A DNA stretch of 64,000 nucleotides from sequence record NC_054932.1; one strand, 5' to 3'. The translations under genes were made by a program, and so were the position numbers. This document shows positions 10,305 to 48,936 of the stretch, piece by piece; positions within the stretch are counted from its first letter, which is position 1; every line of letters begins with the position of its first letter. The notes beneath the pieces are model-generated. The model did no database searches, had not been told where the DNA came from, and was given only the letters and a program-made list of their open reading frames with translations. The stretch comes from Escherichia phage teqdroes.

Positions 10305-10574
10305 ATGGCTAAAAAAGAAATGGTTGAATTTGATGAAGCTATCCATGGCGAAGACTTGGCTAAATTTATTAAAGAAGCATCTGATCATAAACTGAAAATT
10401 TCCGGTTATAATGAACTGATTAAAGATATTCGAATTCGTGCCAAAGATGAACTTGGCGTTGATGGTAAGATGTTTAATCGTCTATTAGCTTTGTATCATA
10501 AAGATAACCGTGATGTGTTTGAAGCTGAAACTGAAGAGGTAGTTGAACTTTATGACACAGTTTTCTCTAAATGA
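10305..10574 (+). CDS. dsbA: dsDNA-binding protein DsbA (late transcription enhancer), 89 aa
   Basis: ORF track; size and position between rnh and 33 as in T4. Confidence 0.85.
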   Translation: MAKKEMVEFDEAIHGEDLAKFIKEASDHKLKISGYNELIKDIRIRAKDELGVDGKMFNRLLALYHKDNRDVFEAETEEVVELYDTVFSK

Positions 10575-10890
10575 TATTCGTCCGGTCGATGAGACCGGTC
10601 TTTCAGAAAAAGAACTTTCAATTAAGAAAGAAAAGGATGAAATAGCAAAGCTTCTTGATCGTCAAGAAAATGGATTTATTATTGAAAAAATGGTAGAAGA
10701 GTTTGGAATGAGTTATCTTGAAGCTACGACAGCATTCTTGGAAGAAAATTCTATTCCTGAAACTCAATTTGCTAAATTTATTCCTTCGGGTATAATTGAA
10801 AAAATTCAGTCAGAAGCTATTGACGAAAATCTTTTACGTCCTTCTGTTGTTCGTTGTGAAAAAACTAATACATTAGATTTTCTACTATGA
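10552..10890 (+). CDS. 33: Late transcription co-activator gp33, 112 aa
   Basis: ATG at 10552 gives MTQFSLNDIRPV...; 112 aa as in T4 gp33; track start 10543 is TTG. Confidence 0.88.
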   Translation: MTQFSLNDIRPVDETGLSEKELSIKKEKDEIAKLLDRQENGFIIEKMVEEFGMSYLEATTAFLEENSIPETQFAKFIPSGIIEKIQSEAIDENLLRPSVVRCEKTNTLDFLL

Positions 10891-42537: not shown

Positions 42538-43657
42538 TTTTAACCTTAACTGGGTCTATTGTTTCCAGTTTCGTTGCATTAGTGAACATATAAAGATGAG
42601 TTACTGAATTATTATTTGATAATTCATGGATAACTTCATCAACGTAAAATTCTGTTTTAAATTGGTTTTTACTATCATTAAAAATAATTTTAACACCAGG
42701 AGTCAAGTTAAAATTACCGACAGTAGAACATTTAGCATAGCCGTCATATTGTGCCATAGTTTGAAGACGAATAGCTTCTTCATATCCATTCCTATAAGTC
42801 ATTTCAGAATAAGCACCTGACCTTGACACTACAATAGAGTTTTCGCCCTTTCCTGTAGTAATCATTGGCAGTGAAGAATCTAAAAATGAATGAGCATAGA
42901 TAGTAGCATTTTTCATTGGGTCACGTTTGTGAGGATTCGATTTAGTCAACCAAACAAAATCATATGCTAATGGGTATTTTAATTCTTGGACAAATTGACC
43001 TATTAAAGATGGCTCACCGACAATCATTGGATATGGTTCTTGATTTATCATCATATCATAGTCCATCATGTTAACTCCCATGATGTCTTGCCACACAAAT
43101 ACAAATTTGTCACTTCCCACAGCTAGAGCAACTTCTCTTACATATGACAAATAGTTTTCAAATGTGCTAGTCCATGGAATATCAGGAACATAAGCATTTA
43201 TAGCATTTATTGCTGGAGTTAATAATGTGCGATCTTGATAAATGACACCAAGCATTTCTTTTATAGATTCACCTGCATCAGGGAAAAATGGTCTACCAAA
43301 TTTAAGATTTTCTATAGAATGAATAGTTCCCAATTCAATAGCAATGATGTTATCGCCTTTTGAATCTACTGACACTGAAAAATGCTTACATCCATAAATT
43401 CGTGTTTTAACATTATTAATATCATTTGCATTAGCTACAGAAATCTGAATTATTTCATTTCCATCCATTTTTGTATGGATGTTTTTAGAATCATAAAACT
43501 GCAGCATTCCTTCATTTCGGCCATAAAGAGAATCCCGCATAGTTAATGTAGTAATAGTAGCAGCTAATTCAACAAATCTATTATTACTCCAAGCGTCGTA
43601 GCTATCAAATAATTTAACGCTGAGATTTGGATATCCGGGGCGTTGCAACATACTCAT
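42482..43657 (-). CDS. 27: Baseplate hub subunit gp27, 391 aa
   Basis: Length equals T4 gp27; synteny. Confidence 0.9.
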
Positions 43658-44406
43658 TATTGTTTATCCTTCTCAATCAGTTTTAATACGAATCCGCGCT
43701 CAGCAGGAATCATTTTCATTATTGAATTTAAGCTATAATTACTTTTTACGAGTGTGTGATTAATTTGATAAAAAGTAAATATCTCATCTGGGTTAACTAA
43801 TAGCTTAAACACGTCTACTATATCAGTGTATTTTTTAATGTACTTATTACAGCATGACATATGTAGAGTTAAATTAATAGGATTCATTGCATCGAGAATT
43901 TGTTCTAATGTTTCTATCTCGATGGCGTCAACGAGTTCTATTTGACTAGACTCGCTAATTTCCTTCCAATCATACCAAATTTCATCTACTTGAACAGAAT
44001 GAATATTTTCAGTAATCATCTTTGCTTTATTTTCATAAAACTCAGAAGGAAACTTTAATTTAATTTTAACATTAGCTACATCAAAAACAGGTTCCTTTAA
44101 TTCTTTTTGGTATATTTCAAATGGAACTGTCTTTTCTTTTTTACATTTTGGACATACGAATGTGACTGGTACTTTTGTTTTACCTATTGACCCTACAAAT
44201 ACCTGCAAAAATATAAATGGTTGCCAAGTCTTCGGATAGTCTCCAAAATAATCATCAATTAAATCAGTAATTATTTCTTTTTGTTCTTGTGGTGACCGAT
44301 GTTCTATATCGTTTCGAACTAACAAAAAATCTCGATAATCTTCTACCGTAAATGGTTTAAAACGATGAACACCATCTGGTAATTTACAACGAATAATGTT
44401 TGCCAT
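43657..44406 (-). CDS. 51: Baseplate hub assembly catalyst gp51, 249 aa
   Basis: Length equals T4 gp51; Cys pairs (CPKCKK...CC); divergent from gene 26. Confidence 0.88.
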
Positions 44407-44457: not shown

Positions 44458-45084
44458 ATGTATGAATACAAATTTGATGTGAGAGTTGGTTCTAAAATAA
44501 TCAATTGTCGCGCATTCACGCTTAAAGAATATCTAGAACTTATTACTGCCAAAAATAATGGTTCTGTAGAAGTAATTGTTAAAAAGCTAATCAAAGACTG
44601 CACAAATGCAAAAGATTTAAACCGCCAAGAATCAGAACTATTGTTGATTCATTTATGGGCACATTCTCTCGGTGAAGTTAATCACGAAAACTCCTGGAAG
44701 TGCACCTGTGGAACTGAAATATCAACCCATATAAATCTATTACATACACAAATAGATGCACCAGAAGACCTCTGGTATACACTGGGTGACATTAAAATTA
44801 AATTCCGATACCCTAAAATTTTTGATGATAAAAATATAGCCCACATGATAGTATCATGTATAGAAACGATTCACGCTAACGGGGAAAGCATTCCAGTTGA
44901 AGACTTAAATGAAAAAGAGCTGGAAGATTTATATTCTATCATCACAGAGTCAGATATTGTAGCTATAAAAGATATGCTTTTAAAGCCTACTGTTTATTTG
45001 GCTGTTCCAATTAAGTGTCCAGAGTGTGGAAAAACCCATGCTCACGTAATAAGAGGCCTCAAAGAGTTCTTTGAGTTACTATAA
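44458..45084 (+). CDS. 26: Baseplate hub subunit gp26, 208 aa
   Basis: Length equals T4 gp26; synteny 51/26/25. Confidence 0.88.
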
Positions 45085-45548: not shown

Positions 45549-45962
45549 ATGAGATTAGAAGATCTTCAAGAAGAATTGAAGAAAGATGTGTTTATAGATT
45601 CGACTAAATTACAGTATGAAGCAGCTAATAATGTGATGTTATATAGTAAATGGCTTAATAAGCATTCAAGTATTAAAAAGGAAATGCTTAGAATTGATGC
45701 ACAGAAAAAAGTTGCTCTTAAAGCTAAATTAGACTACTACTCGGGACGAGGAGATGGTGATGAATTTAGTATGGATCGTTACGAGAAATCAGAAATGAAG
45801 ACAGTTCTATCAGCTGATAAGGATGTTTTAAAGGTTGATACCTCGTTACAGTATTGGGGGATTTTATTAGATTTCTGTAGCGGAGCTCTTGATGCTATCA
45901 AATCACGCGGATTTGCTATTAAGCATATTCAAGACATGCGAGCATTTGAGGCTGGAAAATAA
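45549..45962 (+). CDS. uvsY: Recombination mediator UvsY, 137 aa
   Basis: MRLEDLQEELKKDVFIDSTKLQYEAANNVMLYSKWLNKHSS... recognised as T4 UvsY. Confidence 0.95.
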   Translation: MRLEDLQEELKKDVFIDSTKLQYEAANNVMLYSKWLNKHSSIKKEMLRIDAQKKVALKAKLDYYSGRGDGDEFSMDRYEKSEMKTVLSADKDVLKVDTSLQYWGILLDFCSGALDAIKSRGFAIKHIQDMRAFEAGK

Positions 45963-46186
45963 TGAGATATAGCATTGATGATGCTTTTAATTATGAAGAA
46001 GAATTTGAAACGGAAATTCAATTCTTAATGAAAAAGCATAATCTTAAGCGTCAGGATATTCGTATCCTGGCCGACCATCCATGCGGTGAAGATGTCCTTT
46101 ATATTAAAGGAAAATTTGCCGGATATCTTGATGAATATTTTTATTCTAAAGATATGGGCATTGATATGCATATGAGAGTTGTATAA
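45962..46186 (+). CDS. Hypothetical protein, 74 aa (uvsY.-1-like)
   Basis: ORF track; coupled to uvsY. Confidence 0.6.
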   Translation: MRYSIDDAFNYEEEFETEIQFLMKKHNLKRQDIRILADHPCGEDVLYIKGKFAGYLDEYFYSKDMGIDMHMRVV

Positions 46187-46214
46187 ATAGATATATAATT
46201 CAGAGGAGACAATC

Positions 46215-46382
46215 ATGTCAGATAAGATTTGTGTTGTCTGTAAAACTCCAATCGATTCTGCATTGGTTGTTGAAACAGACAAAGGTCCTGTACATCCTGG
46301 GCCTTGCTATAATTACATTAAAGAACTACCAGTTTCAGAAAGTTCGGAAGAACAATTAAATGAAACACAACTTTTGCTATAG
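46215..46382 (+). CDS. Small Cys-containing protein, 55 aa (uvsY.-2-like); not in ORF track
   Basis: Own translation: MSDKICVVCKTPIDSALVVETDKGPVHPGPCYNYIKELPVSESSEEQLNETQLLL; SD AGAGGAGA 5 nt upstream. Confidence 0.5.
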   Translation: MSDKICVVCKTPIDSALVVETDKGPVHPGPCYNYIKELPVSESSEEQLNETQLLL

Positions 46383-46405: not shown

Positions 46406-46436
46406 GGCCCTTCCTTTTTGGTTGGGCCTTTTTTAA
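46406..46436. terminator. Bidirectional terminator between convergent uvsY-side ORFs (+) and uvsW.1 (-)
   Basis: GGCCC-N13-GGGCC hairpin followed by UUUUUU on the plus strand. Confidence 0.55.
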
Positions 46437-46437
46437 T

Positions 46438-46680
46438 TTAAAAGCTTTCTTCTACTTCATCGTCTGAATCTTCTAATTCAGCTCTTTTTCCTGCCAAAGC
46501 ATCTCTCACAGAGATGTCATCAGTATCTTTTAATTCAGTTTCTTTGACTCTTTTCTTATAATAAGCTTCAAGTTCTTCTAAACCTTCTAATGTTTGACAA
46601 GAGGCAATTTTACCCATAAATTCATCAATAGAAGCTTCATAAAGAAATTGTTTAAATTCTAGTAACATCTTTTTCTCCAA
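46438..46680 (-). CDS. UvsW.1-like small acidic protein, 80 aa
   Basis: ORF track; immediately downstream of uvsW on minus strand. Confidence 0.65.
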   Translation of the reverse strand: MEKKMLLEFKQFLYEASIDEFMGKIASCQTLEGLEELEAYYKKRVKETELKDTDDISVRDALAGKRAELEDSDDEVEESF

Positions 46681-46696
46681 AGGGCCGAAGCCCTTA
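46681..46696 (-). other. UUCG tetraloop hairpin between uvsW and uvsW.1
   Basis: Minus strand AAGGGC-UUCG-GCCCUU followed by SD GGAG. Confidence 0.5.
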
Positions 46697-48205
46697 TAAA
46701 TTAACTGTTTTCATTACGTAATTAAATTTTTCATCTGCGTAGCGCTGAATACGATCAATGCCGTGTTTTAAAAGATAGTTCAAATGAACATATTTCTTTT
46801 TAGTATTAGCAGATTTTGGCTTAACACCACAATCATCTATGAGGTCCCAGACTGTTGCTATTGTCTTAGAACCATGCTTACGTAATACACGACCGATTGT
46901 TTGTAATACAATGATTTTTGATTTAACACCGTGCGCTAAAACAACGTGATGCAGATTTTTAACTGAAATACCAGTAGAAAATACACCATAACTAGCTACT
47001 ATAATTATTCCTTTACCATTTTCAGCTAAGGTTTTCATTATATTGCGGGTTTCGGTATCAACTTCCCCTGATACGTAATAAACTTTATCGTATTCATTTT
47101 TAATTAAATCGAAAATAGCTTTACCATGTGATACATGTTTAAACATGACAAAAGCGTTTTCATCTTTTTGCGCAAGCTTAATAGCTAATTTAGCGATCCA
47201 TTTATTTCTTTTACTAAGCCCAGTAATAATTTTTATTTCTTCTTGATAAGTTTTTCCCTTTAATTTAGTAGTGAACTCATCTGGATAGCGAAGAAAAATA
47301 CTATTAATTTTTAGCTCAGTTACTTGTCCATCTTCCATTAATTTAGAAGTCGTTACTGGCTTAAATATTTCACCAAACATTCCAACATACTGCATGATAT
47401 TAGCTTTGCCATCACGTAATGAACCTGATAGACCAAATTTAAACATACAGTTATTTAATCCTGATATGATAGATGAAATACTTTTTCCTGTAGCAAGATG
47501 GCATTCATCATTCATCATCATTCCAAACTGTGAGAACCATTCTTTTGGTTGTTTTACTACAGTTTGCCATGTACCAACAACGACTGGTGCATCATTTTTA
47601 TATTTATCATCTTTTGATGCTCCGCCACCAATTTTCTTTATCATTGCATGGCTGAATAAACGATAGTCAACGAAGTCATCAGCCATCTGAGTTGTCAGAG
47701 CAGTTGTTGGAACAATGATAAGAATTTTACCTTCATAATTTTCCAAATAATACCGAGCAAGCAAAGCTTGAATTAACGATTTACCAGCGGATGTTGGAAG
47801 ATTAAGAATTCTACGACGATTAACTAATCCTTCGAACACTGCATCTTTTTGATACCAGTGTGGTTCAATTCTTTTATTTCCTGAATAGATTTCTAATTTA
47901 GAAAGCCATTCATCAAAATCTTTTCTTGATAATTCTTCTTTTTCGTTAATTTGTGGGTCAATCCAGGCTTTATAGCCAAAGTTATCACAGAACTTTTTAA
48001 TTTGCCCGACTAAGCCAAATGGAAGAAGACGATTATAATCTAAAAGACGGATTCGTCCATCCCAGTGGCCATATTTGTATTTCGGATTAAAACGATACCC
48101 ATCAGCTTCAAAGCTAAAGAAATCACGGAGTTCATGAAATGTACTTTCTTCACAATCAATTCTCACGTGACTAAAATCATAAAAATGTACTTTAATGTCA
48201 GTCAT
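46694..48205 (-). CDS. uvsW: UvsW DNA/RNA helicase (SF2), 503 aa
   Basis: Walker A (LPTSAGKS), DECH box (MMMNDECH); size of T4 UvsW. Confidence 0.93.
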   Translation of the reverse strand: MTDIKVHFYDFSHVRIDCEESTFHELRDFFSFEADGYRFNPKYKYGHWDGRIRLLDYNRLLPFGLVGQIKKFCDNFGYKAWIDPQINEKEELSRKDFDEWLSKLEIYSGNKRIEPHWYQKDAVFEGLVNRRRILNLPTSAGKSLIQALLARYYLENYEGKILIIVPTTALTTQMADDFVDYRLFSHAMIKKIGGGASKDDKYKNDAPVVVGTWQTVVKQPKEWFSQFGMMMNDECHLATGKSISSIISGLNNCMFKFGLSGSLRDGKANIMQYVGMFGEIFKPVTTSKLMEDGQVTELKINSIFLRYPDEFTTKLKGKTYQEEIKIITGLSKRNKWIAKLAIKLAQKDENAFVMFKHVSHGKAIFDLIKNEYDKVYYVSGEVDTETRNIMKTLAENGKGIIIVASYGVFSTGISVKNLHHVVLAHGVKSKIIVLQTIGRVLRKHGSKTIATVWDLIDDCGVKPKSANTKKKYVHLNYLLKHGIDRIQRYADEKFNYVMKTVNL

Positions 48206-48234
48206 GTCTAAATACCATGTAATAAATATATCTA

Positions 48235-48242
48235 TATTTATA
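48235..48242 (-). promoter_or_regulatory. Late promoter motif (TATAAATA) upstream of uvsW
   Basis: Minus-strand TATAAATA ~30 bp upstream of uvsW ATG. Confidence 0.55.
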
Positions 48243-48255
48243 CTGAGGAAATATT

Positions 48256-48936
48256 ATGATAGATAAAGATTATATTGCAGAGCTGAAGGCTCTTGATGAT
48301 AATAAAGAAGCTAAAGCTAAACTAGCTGAATATGCTGAACAGTTTGGTATAAAGGTCAAAAAGAATAAATCTTTTGATAATATCGTTGTTGATATTGAAG
48401 AAGCCCTCCAGAAGCTCGCTAGTGAACCTATGCCAGAGACTGATGGGTTATCTATTAAAGACTTAATTGATGCTGCTGATGCCGCAGAGGGATTAAAATA
48501 TGACGATGAAGAAGTCAATCCAGAAGCAGCACTTCTGATTGATTCTCCAGTTAAATCTGACATTAAAATTGAAGTAGTAGAAACGGATAAAATTCCTGAA
48601 AATACCGATGTTTTGATTGAAGATACTCCTTTTGTTGAAGAAAAATTCGAACAAGCTGTAGCTGAGATTATTGAATCTGAAAAGCCGTCTGTATTTACTC
48701 TTCCGGAAAACTTTAGCCCGAATCTTCAGTTGATTGGAAAAAATCCAGGATTCTGCACTGTTCCTTGGTGGATTTATCAATGGATTGCTGAAACTCCGGA
48801 TTGGAAATCTCACCCAACAAGTTTTGAGCATGCGTCAGCACACCAAACTTTATTTAGCTTAATTTATTACATTAACCGTGACGGATCAGTTTTAATTCGT
48901 GAAACACGCAATTCTTCTTTCGTAACATTAAAATAA
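48256..48936 (+). CDS. inh: Inh, inhibitor of prohead protease, 226 aa
   Basis: Size and position between uvsW and hoc; acidic N-terminal half. Confidence 0.8.
   Translation: MIDKDYIAELKALDDNKEAKAKLAEYAEQFGIKVKKNKSFDNIVVDIEEALQKLASEPMPETDGLSIKDLIDAADAAEGLKYDDEEVNPEAALLIDSPVKSDIKIEVVETDKIPENTDVLIEDTPFVEEKFEQAVAEIIESEKPSVFTLPENFSPNLQLIGKNPGFCTVPWWIYQWIAETPDWKSHPTSFEHASAHQTLFSLIYYINRDGSVLIRETRNSSFVTLK

Follow-up and report, generated by a model that had tools for sequence, protein, structure and literature searches.

The stretch of DNA analysed here, 64,000 nucleotides of the record NC_054932.1 of Escherichia phage teqdroes (referred to below as the window), contains a reading frame of only 55 codons downstream of the recombination mediator gene uvsY. 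Such a short frame raises the question of whether it is a gene at all and, if it is, what kind of protein it encodes and what this protein might do. An earlier note, made from the sequence of this DNA, had drawn attention to the frame as a possible mini zinc-ribbon protein occupying the position of T4 uvsY.-2.

Identity of the reading frame

The frame opens with an ATG at 46215 and closes with a stop codon at 46380-46382; the coding sequence (46215-46382, plus strand, 55 codons plus stop) specifies the product MSDKICVVCKTPIDSALVVETDKGPVHPGPCYNYIKELPVSESSEEQLNETQLLL. The start codon and length proposed previously were confirmed, as was the strong Shine-Dalgarno sequence, AGAGGAGA at 46202-46209 (+), which is separated from the ATG by a 5-nt spacer. 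An in-frame TAG located 8 codons 5' of the ATG closes the frame upstream, so that 46215 is the earliest possible ATG and the start is fixed.

The coding sequence is identical at 168 of 168 nucleotides to T4 uvsY.-2 (NC_000866, 114496-114663), and the product at all 55 residues to the T4 protein (T4p185, NP_049797.1, UniProt Q00778); over the 3.2 kb surrounding the frame, identity with the T4 reference is 96.5%. The match of the product to Pfam DUF2685 (PF10886) is full-length, with residues 3-55 aligned to profile positions 1-55 of 55; it scores 119 bits (E=9e-35), the gathering cut-off being 25 bits. It also matches phrog_1043, which is labelled 'unknown function', while an NCBIfam search with UvsY.-2 found no family model. 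The position is orthologous to that in a T4-like genome, downstream of gp25, uvsY and uvsY.-1 and facing uvsW.1-uvsW. By every criterion that could be tested, the frame is the catalogued T4 gene uvsY.-2, a member of DUF2685, and hence a known and annotated gene, not a new one. The earlier note was right about the uvsY.-2 position; what stands there is uvsY.-2 itself, 100% identical to that of T4. Its description of the frame as unlisted is accurate in so far as a product of 55 amino acids is under the usual 60-aa length cut-off, which is why the frame was missing from the list, but the gene is annotated in T4 as T4p185 and has a Pfam family of its own.

Likeness to the T4 locus extends beyond the gene and its position to the Shine-Dalgarno sequence, the upstream TATAAATA element and the terminator, all of which are identical. 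No difference was found inside the gene. The spacer between uvsY.-1 and uvsY.-2, compared over positions 46190-46214 of the window and 114664-114689 of NC_000866, differs by a TA indel, being 28 nt long here and 26 nt in T4; owing to this indel, the upstream in-frame TAG is present here and absent from T4. In at least one T4 record, that of the clone OL964745 (locus L001, 1318-1668), a 116-aa 'DUF2685 domain-containing protein' replaces the separate uvsY.-1 and uvsY.-2. We considered this protein as a separate form and rejected it, since it is merely an in-frame upstream extension of uvsY.-2, made possible in T4 because the 26-nt spacer contains no in-frame TAG.

In the nearest public record, that of phage Aplg8 (99.8% identical), uvsY.-2 is not annotated. 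Filters that remove frames of less than 60 codons, and some public annotations such as that of Aplg8, thus lose phage genes that are real and conserved. When the literature was searched for uvsY.-2 by accession number, only unrelated papers came up. What the present analysis adds to the known gene is modest: an assignment of CCHC ligands, including a clade with CCCC; the placing of the fold in the treble-clef class; and a conserved C-terminal motif.

Transcription signals, distribution and selection

The gene order 5' of the frame is gp51, gp26, gp25, uvsY (45549-45962, plus strand, PF11056) and uvsY.-1 (45962-46186, plus strand, 74 aa, phrog_1541), the last being the immediate upstream neighbour. 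On the 3' side, uvsY.-2 is convergent with uvsW.1 (46438-46668, minus strand, PF11637) and the helicase gene uvsW (46694-48205, minus strand, 503 aa). The product of uvsW.1 is 76 aa long when counted from its ATG; the longest-ORF listing reaches back to a TTG at 46680. The genome is that of a Tequatrovirus, i.e. a T4-like phage.

The T4 late-promoter consensus TATAAATA occurs on the plus strand at 46182-46189, where it overlaps the stop codon of uvsY.-1 and stops 25 nt short of the uvsY.-2 ATG. As the window contains 18 copies of this octamer, against 9.3 expected, a single copy is weak evidence. However, the exact element is similarly placed 5' of uvsY.-2 in Lazarusvirus, Mosigvirus, Kanagawavirus and Muldoonvirus, near matches are found in Karamvirus and Jiaodavirus, and the record of phage fPS-2 annotates the site as a 'predicted late promoter'. 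In the supplements to a time-resolved omics study of T4, uvsY.-2 is assigned to the class 'middle-RNA_late-Protein' (PMC9697503). The earlier note had proposed that expression of the peptide be checked, and this temporal class, with UvsY.-2 recorded there as a late protein, answers that point. Taken together, the conserved element and the late-protein class suggest that uvsY.-2 is transcribed from a late promoter of its own as well as by read-through out of the uvsY unit. A sigma-70-like pair at 46172-46199 (+), ATGAGA and TATAAT separated by 16 nt and matching the consensus at 10 of 12 positions, overlaps TATAAATA; sigma-70-like sites are fewer in this region than in shuffled controls, so this pair is probably not meaningful. 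A GGAG-type Shine-Dalgarno sequence precedes the gene in 10 of the 12 sequences compared, the window included.

Downstream of the stop codon, at 46406-46434 (+), lies an intrinsic terminator, a hairpin of the form GGCCCUUCC-UUUUU-GGUUGGGCC followed by U6. The hairpin proper occupies 46406-46428 and the T6 run 46429-46434, with a folding energy of -16.1 kcal/mol (z = -2.8); a simple terminator scan missed it because of an internal mismatch in the stem. The same terminator is found unchanged in T4, and the Aplg8 record annotates a rho-independent terminator at this place. The earlier note had taken the structure for a convergent terminator, which does not hold, as the hairpin is not symmetric: T6 follows it on the plus side, whereas AAAACU follows it on the minus strand, and it therefore looks like a terminator for the plus strand only. 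In this arrangement uvsY.-2 closes the gp25-uvsY transcription unit at the intrinsic terminator. When the whole window (1-64000) was compared with Rfam at gathering thresholds, no RNA family was hit: the 64 kb yielded no tRNA, no group I intron and no other curated RNA. The uvsY.-2 locus is thus not accounted for by any known RNA element.

A tblastn search with the T4 protein found UvsY.-2 in 1,256 of 50,697 phage records, among them phages that infect Escherichia, Klebsiella, Acinetobacter, Vibrio and Aeromonas. Twelve sequences, taken from different genera, all have the frame intact, and for pairs of these with unsaturated dS the Nei-Gojobori method gave dN/dS of 0.04-0.20, values that place the gene, as judged from its codons, under purifying selection. 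Loss of the frame among related phages, which had been named as the outcome that would count against a gene, was not found; the frame is conserved in more than 1,250 records. An exhaustive phmmer search of 1.84 billion representative proteins gave 39 hits, 38 of which are short proteins of the family; the exception, a repetitive protein of 450 aa, looks spurious. In a profile search of 5.8 billion proteins, 91 clusters were recovered, DUF2685 being the sole domain recorded for each, and most hits were 51-63 aa long; this search yielded no informative domain fusions. The family is thus small: it collapses into 39 clusters at an identity of 50% and into 91 at 90%, and its members are about 55 aa long. 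The longer DUF2685 entries examined proved to be N-terminal chimeras or to run on beyond the usual end.

One longer form may be described separately. A 126-aa protein (P0028, phrog_26998) encoded on the metagenome contig SRR24752792_27035 (locus L014, 487-867) starts at the end of uvsY and consists of a 72-aa N-terminal part fused in frame to a DUF2685 module. In searches, the N-terminal 72 aa resembled neither uvsY.-1 nor any annotated family. The frame has an internal ATG with AAGGA upstream, and TATAAATA lies inside the N-terminal part, so that synthesis of one protein or of two is possible.

UvsY is found in 1,466 phage records and UvsW.1 in 1,338, so that both are broadly co-distributed with UvsY.-2, and phyletic patterns single out no partner. 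The gap between UvsY and UvsY.-2 consists mostly of two groups. In cyanophages (Kyanoviridae), the frame between uvsY and uvsW was unrelated in the one example examined. In Slopekvirus, Pseudotevenvirus and Pectobacterium phage POP12, a divergent uvsY.-2 homologue lies directly 3' of uvsY (L015, 3414-3590; L017, 589-768; L018, 580-762; L019, 595-759); a single-sequence search with the T4 protein mostly misses this clade. Its homology to UvsY.-2 is supported by an hhalign probability of 98.1%, and of the three divergent proteins scanned two pass the DUF2685 cut-off, POP12 reaching 24.5 bits against the required 25. A tblastn search with the divergent variant matches 176 phage records, which is an upper figure for the divergent form. 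By these searches, uvsY.-2 is close to a core gene of Straboviridae, the T4-like phages other than the cyanophages.

The synteny of the region, with gp25/uvsY on one side and uvsW.1/uvsW on the other, is kept across about 12 genera, and this order recurs in loci L004 and L006-L013. uvsY.-2 has a stable place behind gp25/uvsY, in most cases convergent with uvsW.1, but no neighbour is universal. In Lazarusvirus, uvsY.-2 follows gp25, and uvsY and uvsW are not adjacent; in 44RR, it comes after gp25 and a GatB/YqeY-like frame and faces uvsW.1. In T4-like phages of Aeromonas and Vibrio, the uvsY.-1 slot is taken by a frame of ~140-155 aa (L004, 1004-1474; L005, 912-1325; L007, 1016-1483), which two of the three records annotate as 'tRNA amidotransferase' (GatB/YqeY-like) and the third as hypothetical. 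This replacement indicates that uvsY.-1 is no fixed partner of uvsY.-2.

Probable metal ligands, predicted fold and C-terminal tail

In an alignment of 39 family sequences (mean column identity 39%), residues C6, C9, H27, G29, C31 and E42 are invariant, and K10, G24 and L53 nearly so. The candidate metal ligands follow the pattern C6-x2-C9-x17-H27-x3-C31, their codons lying at 46230-46232, 46239-46241, 46293-46295 and 46305-46307 (+), respectively. More generally, C-x2-C-x15-21-H-x3(4)-C is shared by 109 of the 116 proteins of the family. Of the seven that lack it, six are chimeric, partial, truncated or error-laden, and the seventh (P0082) has Asn in place of His. In the Slopekvirus, Pseudotevenvirus and POP12 proteins, His27 is replaced by Cys, which creates a CCCC site of the form C-x2-C-x14-18-C-x3-C. 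Such a swap of His for Cys, at a position that does not otherwise vary, is what one would expect of a metal ligand, and on this pattern of residues UvsY.-2 very probably binds zinc. The C-x2-C pair and the downstream Cys to which the earlier note had pointed are indeed present and conserved, and the check that it had suggested, conservation of the cysteines in relatives, gave a clear outcome, with C6, C9 and C31 all invariant; what it overlooked is the third of the four invariant ligand positions, His27.

The note had further suggested a mini zinc-ribbon. An AlphaFold2 model built on the family alignment, with pLDDT of 82-90 for residues 1-40, places strands at residues 19-21 and 24-26 and a helix at residues 30-37. 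In this model, H27 falls just past the second strand, and C31 lies in the first turn of the helix, of which it is residue two. A ligand after the strand and another at the start of the helix make a treble-clef arrangement rather than a zinc ribbon, the definition of which, two CxxC-type knuckles each on a beta-hairpin and a three-stranded sheet, does not describe the model. Zinc binding thus survives from the original proposal as very probable, while ribbon is probably the wrong fold class. The predicted CCHC treble-clef zinc finger covers residues 4-37 (46224-46325, +), and the model argues that this segment is most likely a finger of the eL24/TRASH/LIM-half-like kind with one structural Zn2+.

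The best structural matches of the model are treble-clef fingers, namely eL24/Rlp24, LIM, PKC C1, YacG, FYVE, MYM/TRASH and FCS, and on compact eL24 chains it superposes at 1.4-1.5 A over 38 residues. A Foldseek search of the model against the PDB found nothing significant, and a structure search of BFVD brought up nothing beyond members of the family and other unnamed proteins. With eL24/Rlp24, TRASH/MYM, FCS and LIM-half fingers, the model shares a CxxC knuckle, a beta-hairpin and a helix the N-terminus of which supplies the last ligand. TRASH domains have the ligand spacing C-x2-C-x19-22-C-x3-C, which is comparable with the C-x2-C-x17-H-x3-C of UvsY.-2. A metal-trafficking role of the TRASH or NosL-like type was considered and appears very unlikely, the generic fold being its sole support.

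At the level of sequence, a PDB search with the single protein gave spurious hits only (e.g. the lysostaphin repeat). A profile search of the PDB gave a marginal hit to the C-terminal zinc finger of Vps39 (6ze9, E=0.006), and PF10367 was matched by seven of 39 family members. The Vps39/Vam6 finger (zf-Vps39_C) is the closest sequence-level match outside the family, with the common stretch CvVCKkpI...G.V; however, it is a domain of a eukaryotic tethering complex, and the E-values are marginal. This match is probably due to a finger pattern that both have, not to shared ancestry.

Beyond the finger, residues 38-47 (46326-46355, +) form an acidic, Ser/Glu-rich segment which includes the invariant E42 and is modelled with low confidence; pLDDT is 57 for residues 41-50, and the length of the segment differs between clades. 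It is followed by a conserved C-terminal motif, L48-N-E-T-Q-L-L-L55 (46356-46379, +), the C-terminal peptide of UvsY.-2 being SSEEQLNETQLLL. The family consensus of this tail, L-x-E-[TVI]-[QE]-L-L-[LMI], is found at the C-terminus, or no more than 2 residues from it, in 102 of 109 proteins, and in the CCCC clade the tail is an invariant LNEVQMLL. AlphaFold2 assigns the tail moderate confidence (pLDDT 57-71). From the model and the fold comparison, we infer a flexible acidic linker at residues 38-47 and a conserved acidic-hydrophobic peptide in the last 8 residues. The tail could also pack back on the finger instead of binding a partner. The net charge of UvsY.-2 is -6, equal to the family median.

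Proposed role, alternatives and neighbouring genes

Knock-down data are available for T4. In a CRISPRi-ART screen, which relies on translational knock-down by dCas13d, uvsY.-2 was rated 'Semi-Fit', with a gene score of 1.12 and individual guides at 2.2-2.3 (PMC11879866). The effect was mild, plaque area being reduced to about half with a titre within about 2-fold of the control, and according to the authors complementation restored both EOP and plaque size (PMC11879866). Five T4 genes whose function is wholly unknown received this rating, among them uvsY.-2 (PMC11879866). Knock-downs of uvsY, uvsW and uvsY.-1 were 'Not Fit' in the same screen (PMC11879866), so the neighbours give no help on the function of uvsY.-2.

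The reading that we favour, with a probability of about 0.7, is that uvsY.-2 encodes a conserved, translated 55-residue protein composed of a zinc finger and a tail, which would serve as a protein-binding adaptor or modulator accumulating late in infection. With a net charge near -6, the protein should bind nucleic acids poorly, and protein binding is most likely. A folded domain, a flexible acidic linker and an acidic-hydrophobic C-terminus are together typical of proteins that dock by their tails, and this architecture underlies the adaptor reading. According to the proposed mechanism, one structural Zn2+ would hold the treble-clef finger, which may contact one protein surface, while the peptide at the C-terminus, L-x-E-[TV]-[QE]-LL[LMI], would fit into a hydrophobic pocket on the partner. 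Such a partner should be conserved across T4-like phages, and would be either phage-encoded or a universally conserved host protein. UvsY.-2 would then act as a small adaptor or modulator, its amount rising late in infection. Near-universal in non-cyanophage T4-like phages and with a complementable defect, uvsY.-2 is a reasonable small target, and its anatomy, i.e. the CCHC/CCCC finger, the acidic linker and the conserved docking-type C-terminal peptide, is testable.

One more specific explanation would be that UvsY.-2 is a further ligand of the sliding clamp gp45, its acidic linker and hydrophobic C-terminus mimicking the tails of gp43, gp33 and gp55; the finger would then be tethered to loaded clamps, or the protein would compete with the polymerase and the late-transcription factors late in infection. 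These three proteins bind gp45 via 'hydrophobic and acidic C-termini' on unstructured linkers (PMC2988020), and their tails in T4 read ...SLDFLFG (gp43), ...SLDFLYEAND (gp55) and ...TLDFLL (gp33). Like UvsY.-2, they combine a flexible linker with a short C-terminus that is acidic and hydrophobic and has Leu or Phe residues at its end; counted from the C-terminus, [TVI]-[QE]-L-L-[LMI] follows the clamp-tail order of a hydrophobic residue, an acidic or polar one and three hydrophobic ones. The late accumulation of UvsY.-2 given in the omics supplements (PMC9697503) would fit as well. The resemblance, however, comprises only five residues of low complexity. UvsY.-2 ends in E-T-Q-L-L-L, without Phe, and does not literally match the clamp epitope consensus [ST]-L-D-F-L-[FYL], and in the UvsY.-2 family Thr is the commonest residue where the clamp tails have Leu. 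We therefore regard the clamp as an unlikely partner. gp45 was not found in the 64-kb window. A related idea, which is something of a long shot, makes UvsY.-2 a fourth client of gp45 or of another replication/late-transcription hub, the tail docking and the finger recruiting or blocking a factor; if true, UvsY.-2 would modulate the late hand-over between replication, late transcription and packaging.

The bacterial beta-clamp-binding motif, QL[SD]LF / QLxLxL, was considered separately for the tail. Of 106 sequences, 61 have Q, 37 E and 7 T immediately ahead of the Leu run, and the tail is one residue short of the motif; as the Gln is not conserved, this reading was rejected.

UvsY.-2 might instead inhibit or modulate a conserved host protein, in the way of other small inhibitors built of a zinc finger and a tail, such as YacG, which acts on gyrase, or the anti-sigma protein CsfB/Gin; or it might be an anti-defence factor. 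It is small, acidic (-6) and single-domain, as are many phage-encoded inhibitors of host proteins, and the authors of the CRISPRi-ART screen suggest inhibition of defence systems as a possibility for unknown Semi-Fit genes (PMC11879866). Anti-defence genes, however, are usually accessory and fast-evolving, whereas uvsY.-2 is near-universal, fixed in position and low in dN/dS, and it spans Straboviridae of Vibrio, Aeromonas, Acinetobacter and enterics. The similarity to YacG (the E. coli gyrase inhibitor) and CsfB/Gin (anti-sigma-G) is limited to the generic treble-clef fold; there is no sequence similarity, and the ligand spacing differs. Its near-core status and slow evolution thus disfavour an action against the host, which we consider improbable.

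Could the finger bind nucleic acid, either RNA, like eL24 on the ribosome, or DNA in the course of uvsY/uvsW recombination and repair? The top structural matches are rRNA-binding fingers of eL24/Rlp24, and in most genera uvsY.-2 sits between the recombination genes uvsY and uvsW. Nevertheless, the protein carries a net charge of about -6, the finger itself is neutral to acidic, and a single basic residue (K10) is nearly invariant. The adjacency of uvsY.-2 to uvsY or uvsW is not universal, Lazarusvirus and 44RR being exceptions, and knock-downs of these two genes had no fitness effect in the screen in which uvsY.-2 scored (PMC11879866). This makes a nucleic-acid-binding finger very improbable. 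Finally, that the frame is a chance or non-functional remnant, as its 55 codons and its omission from public annotations such as that of Aplg8 might suggest, is virtually excluded by the full-length Pfam match, more than 1,250 records, invariant ligand residues, dN/dS far below 1, a temporal class measured for the protein and a knock-down phenotype that can be complemented.

Several observations concern the neighbouring genes of the window. The gene for gp33, the late-transcription coactivator (10552-10890, plus strand, PF16805), encodes a protein ending in ...EKTNTLDFLL, the known gp45-clamp-binding tail, and gp26 (44458-45084, plus strand) ends in ...KEFFELL, so that Leu-Leu C-termini occur in three genes of the window, gp33, gp26 and uvsY.-2. 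UvsW.1 ends in ...DSDDEVEESF, an acidic tail with a terminal Phe. As in most relatives, uvsW (503 aa) and uvsW.1 (76 aa) are separate frames here (46438-48205, minus strand); the T4 reference NC_000866 annotates a single uvsW of 1,764 nt with a note on sequence discrepancies. Only 50 nt (48206-48255) separate the start of uvsW from a divergent frame at 48256-48936 (226 aa), for which no Pfam hit was found. In the T4 reference, the homing-endonuclease gene segE adjoins uvsW; it appears to be missing beside uvsW in teqdroes. Both gp51 (43657-44406, minus strand) and gp26 match T4_baseplate (PF12322), a common match which marks them as paralogues. Paired cysteines are present in each of them, CPKC...CC in gp51 and CTC...CPEC in gp26, and, to judge from these motifs, they could be zinc sites.
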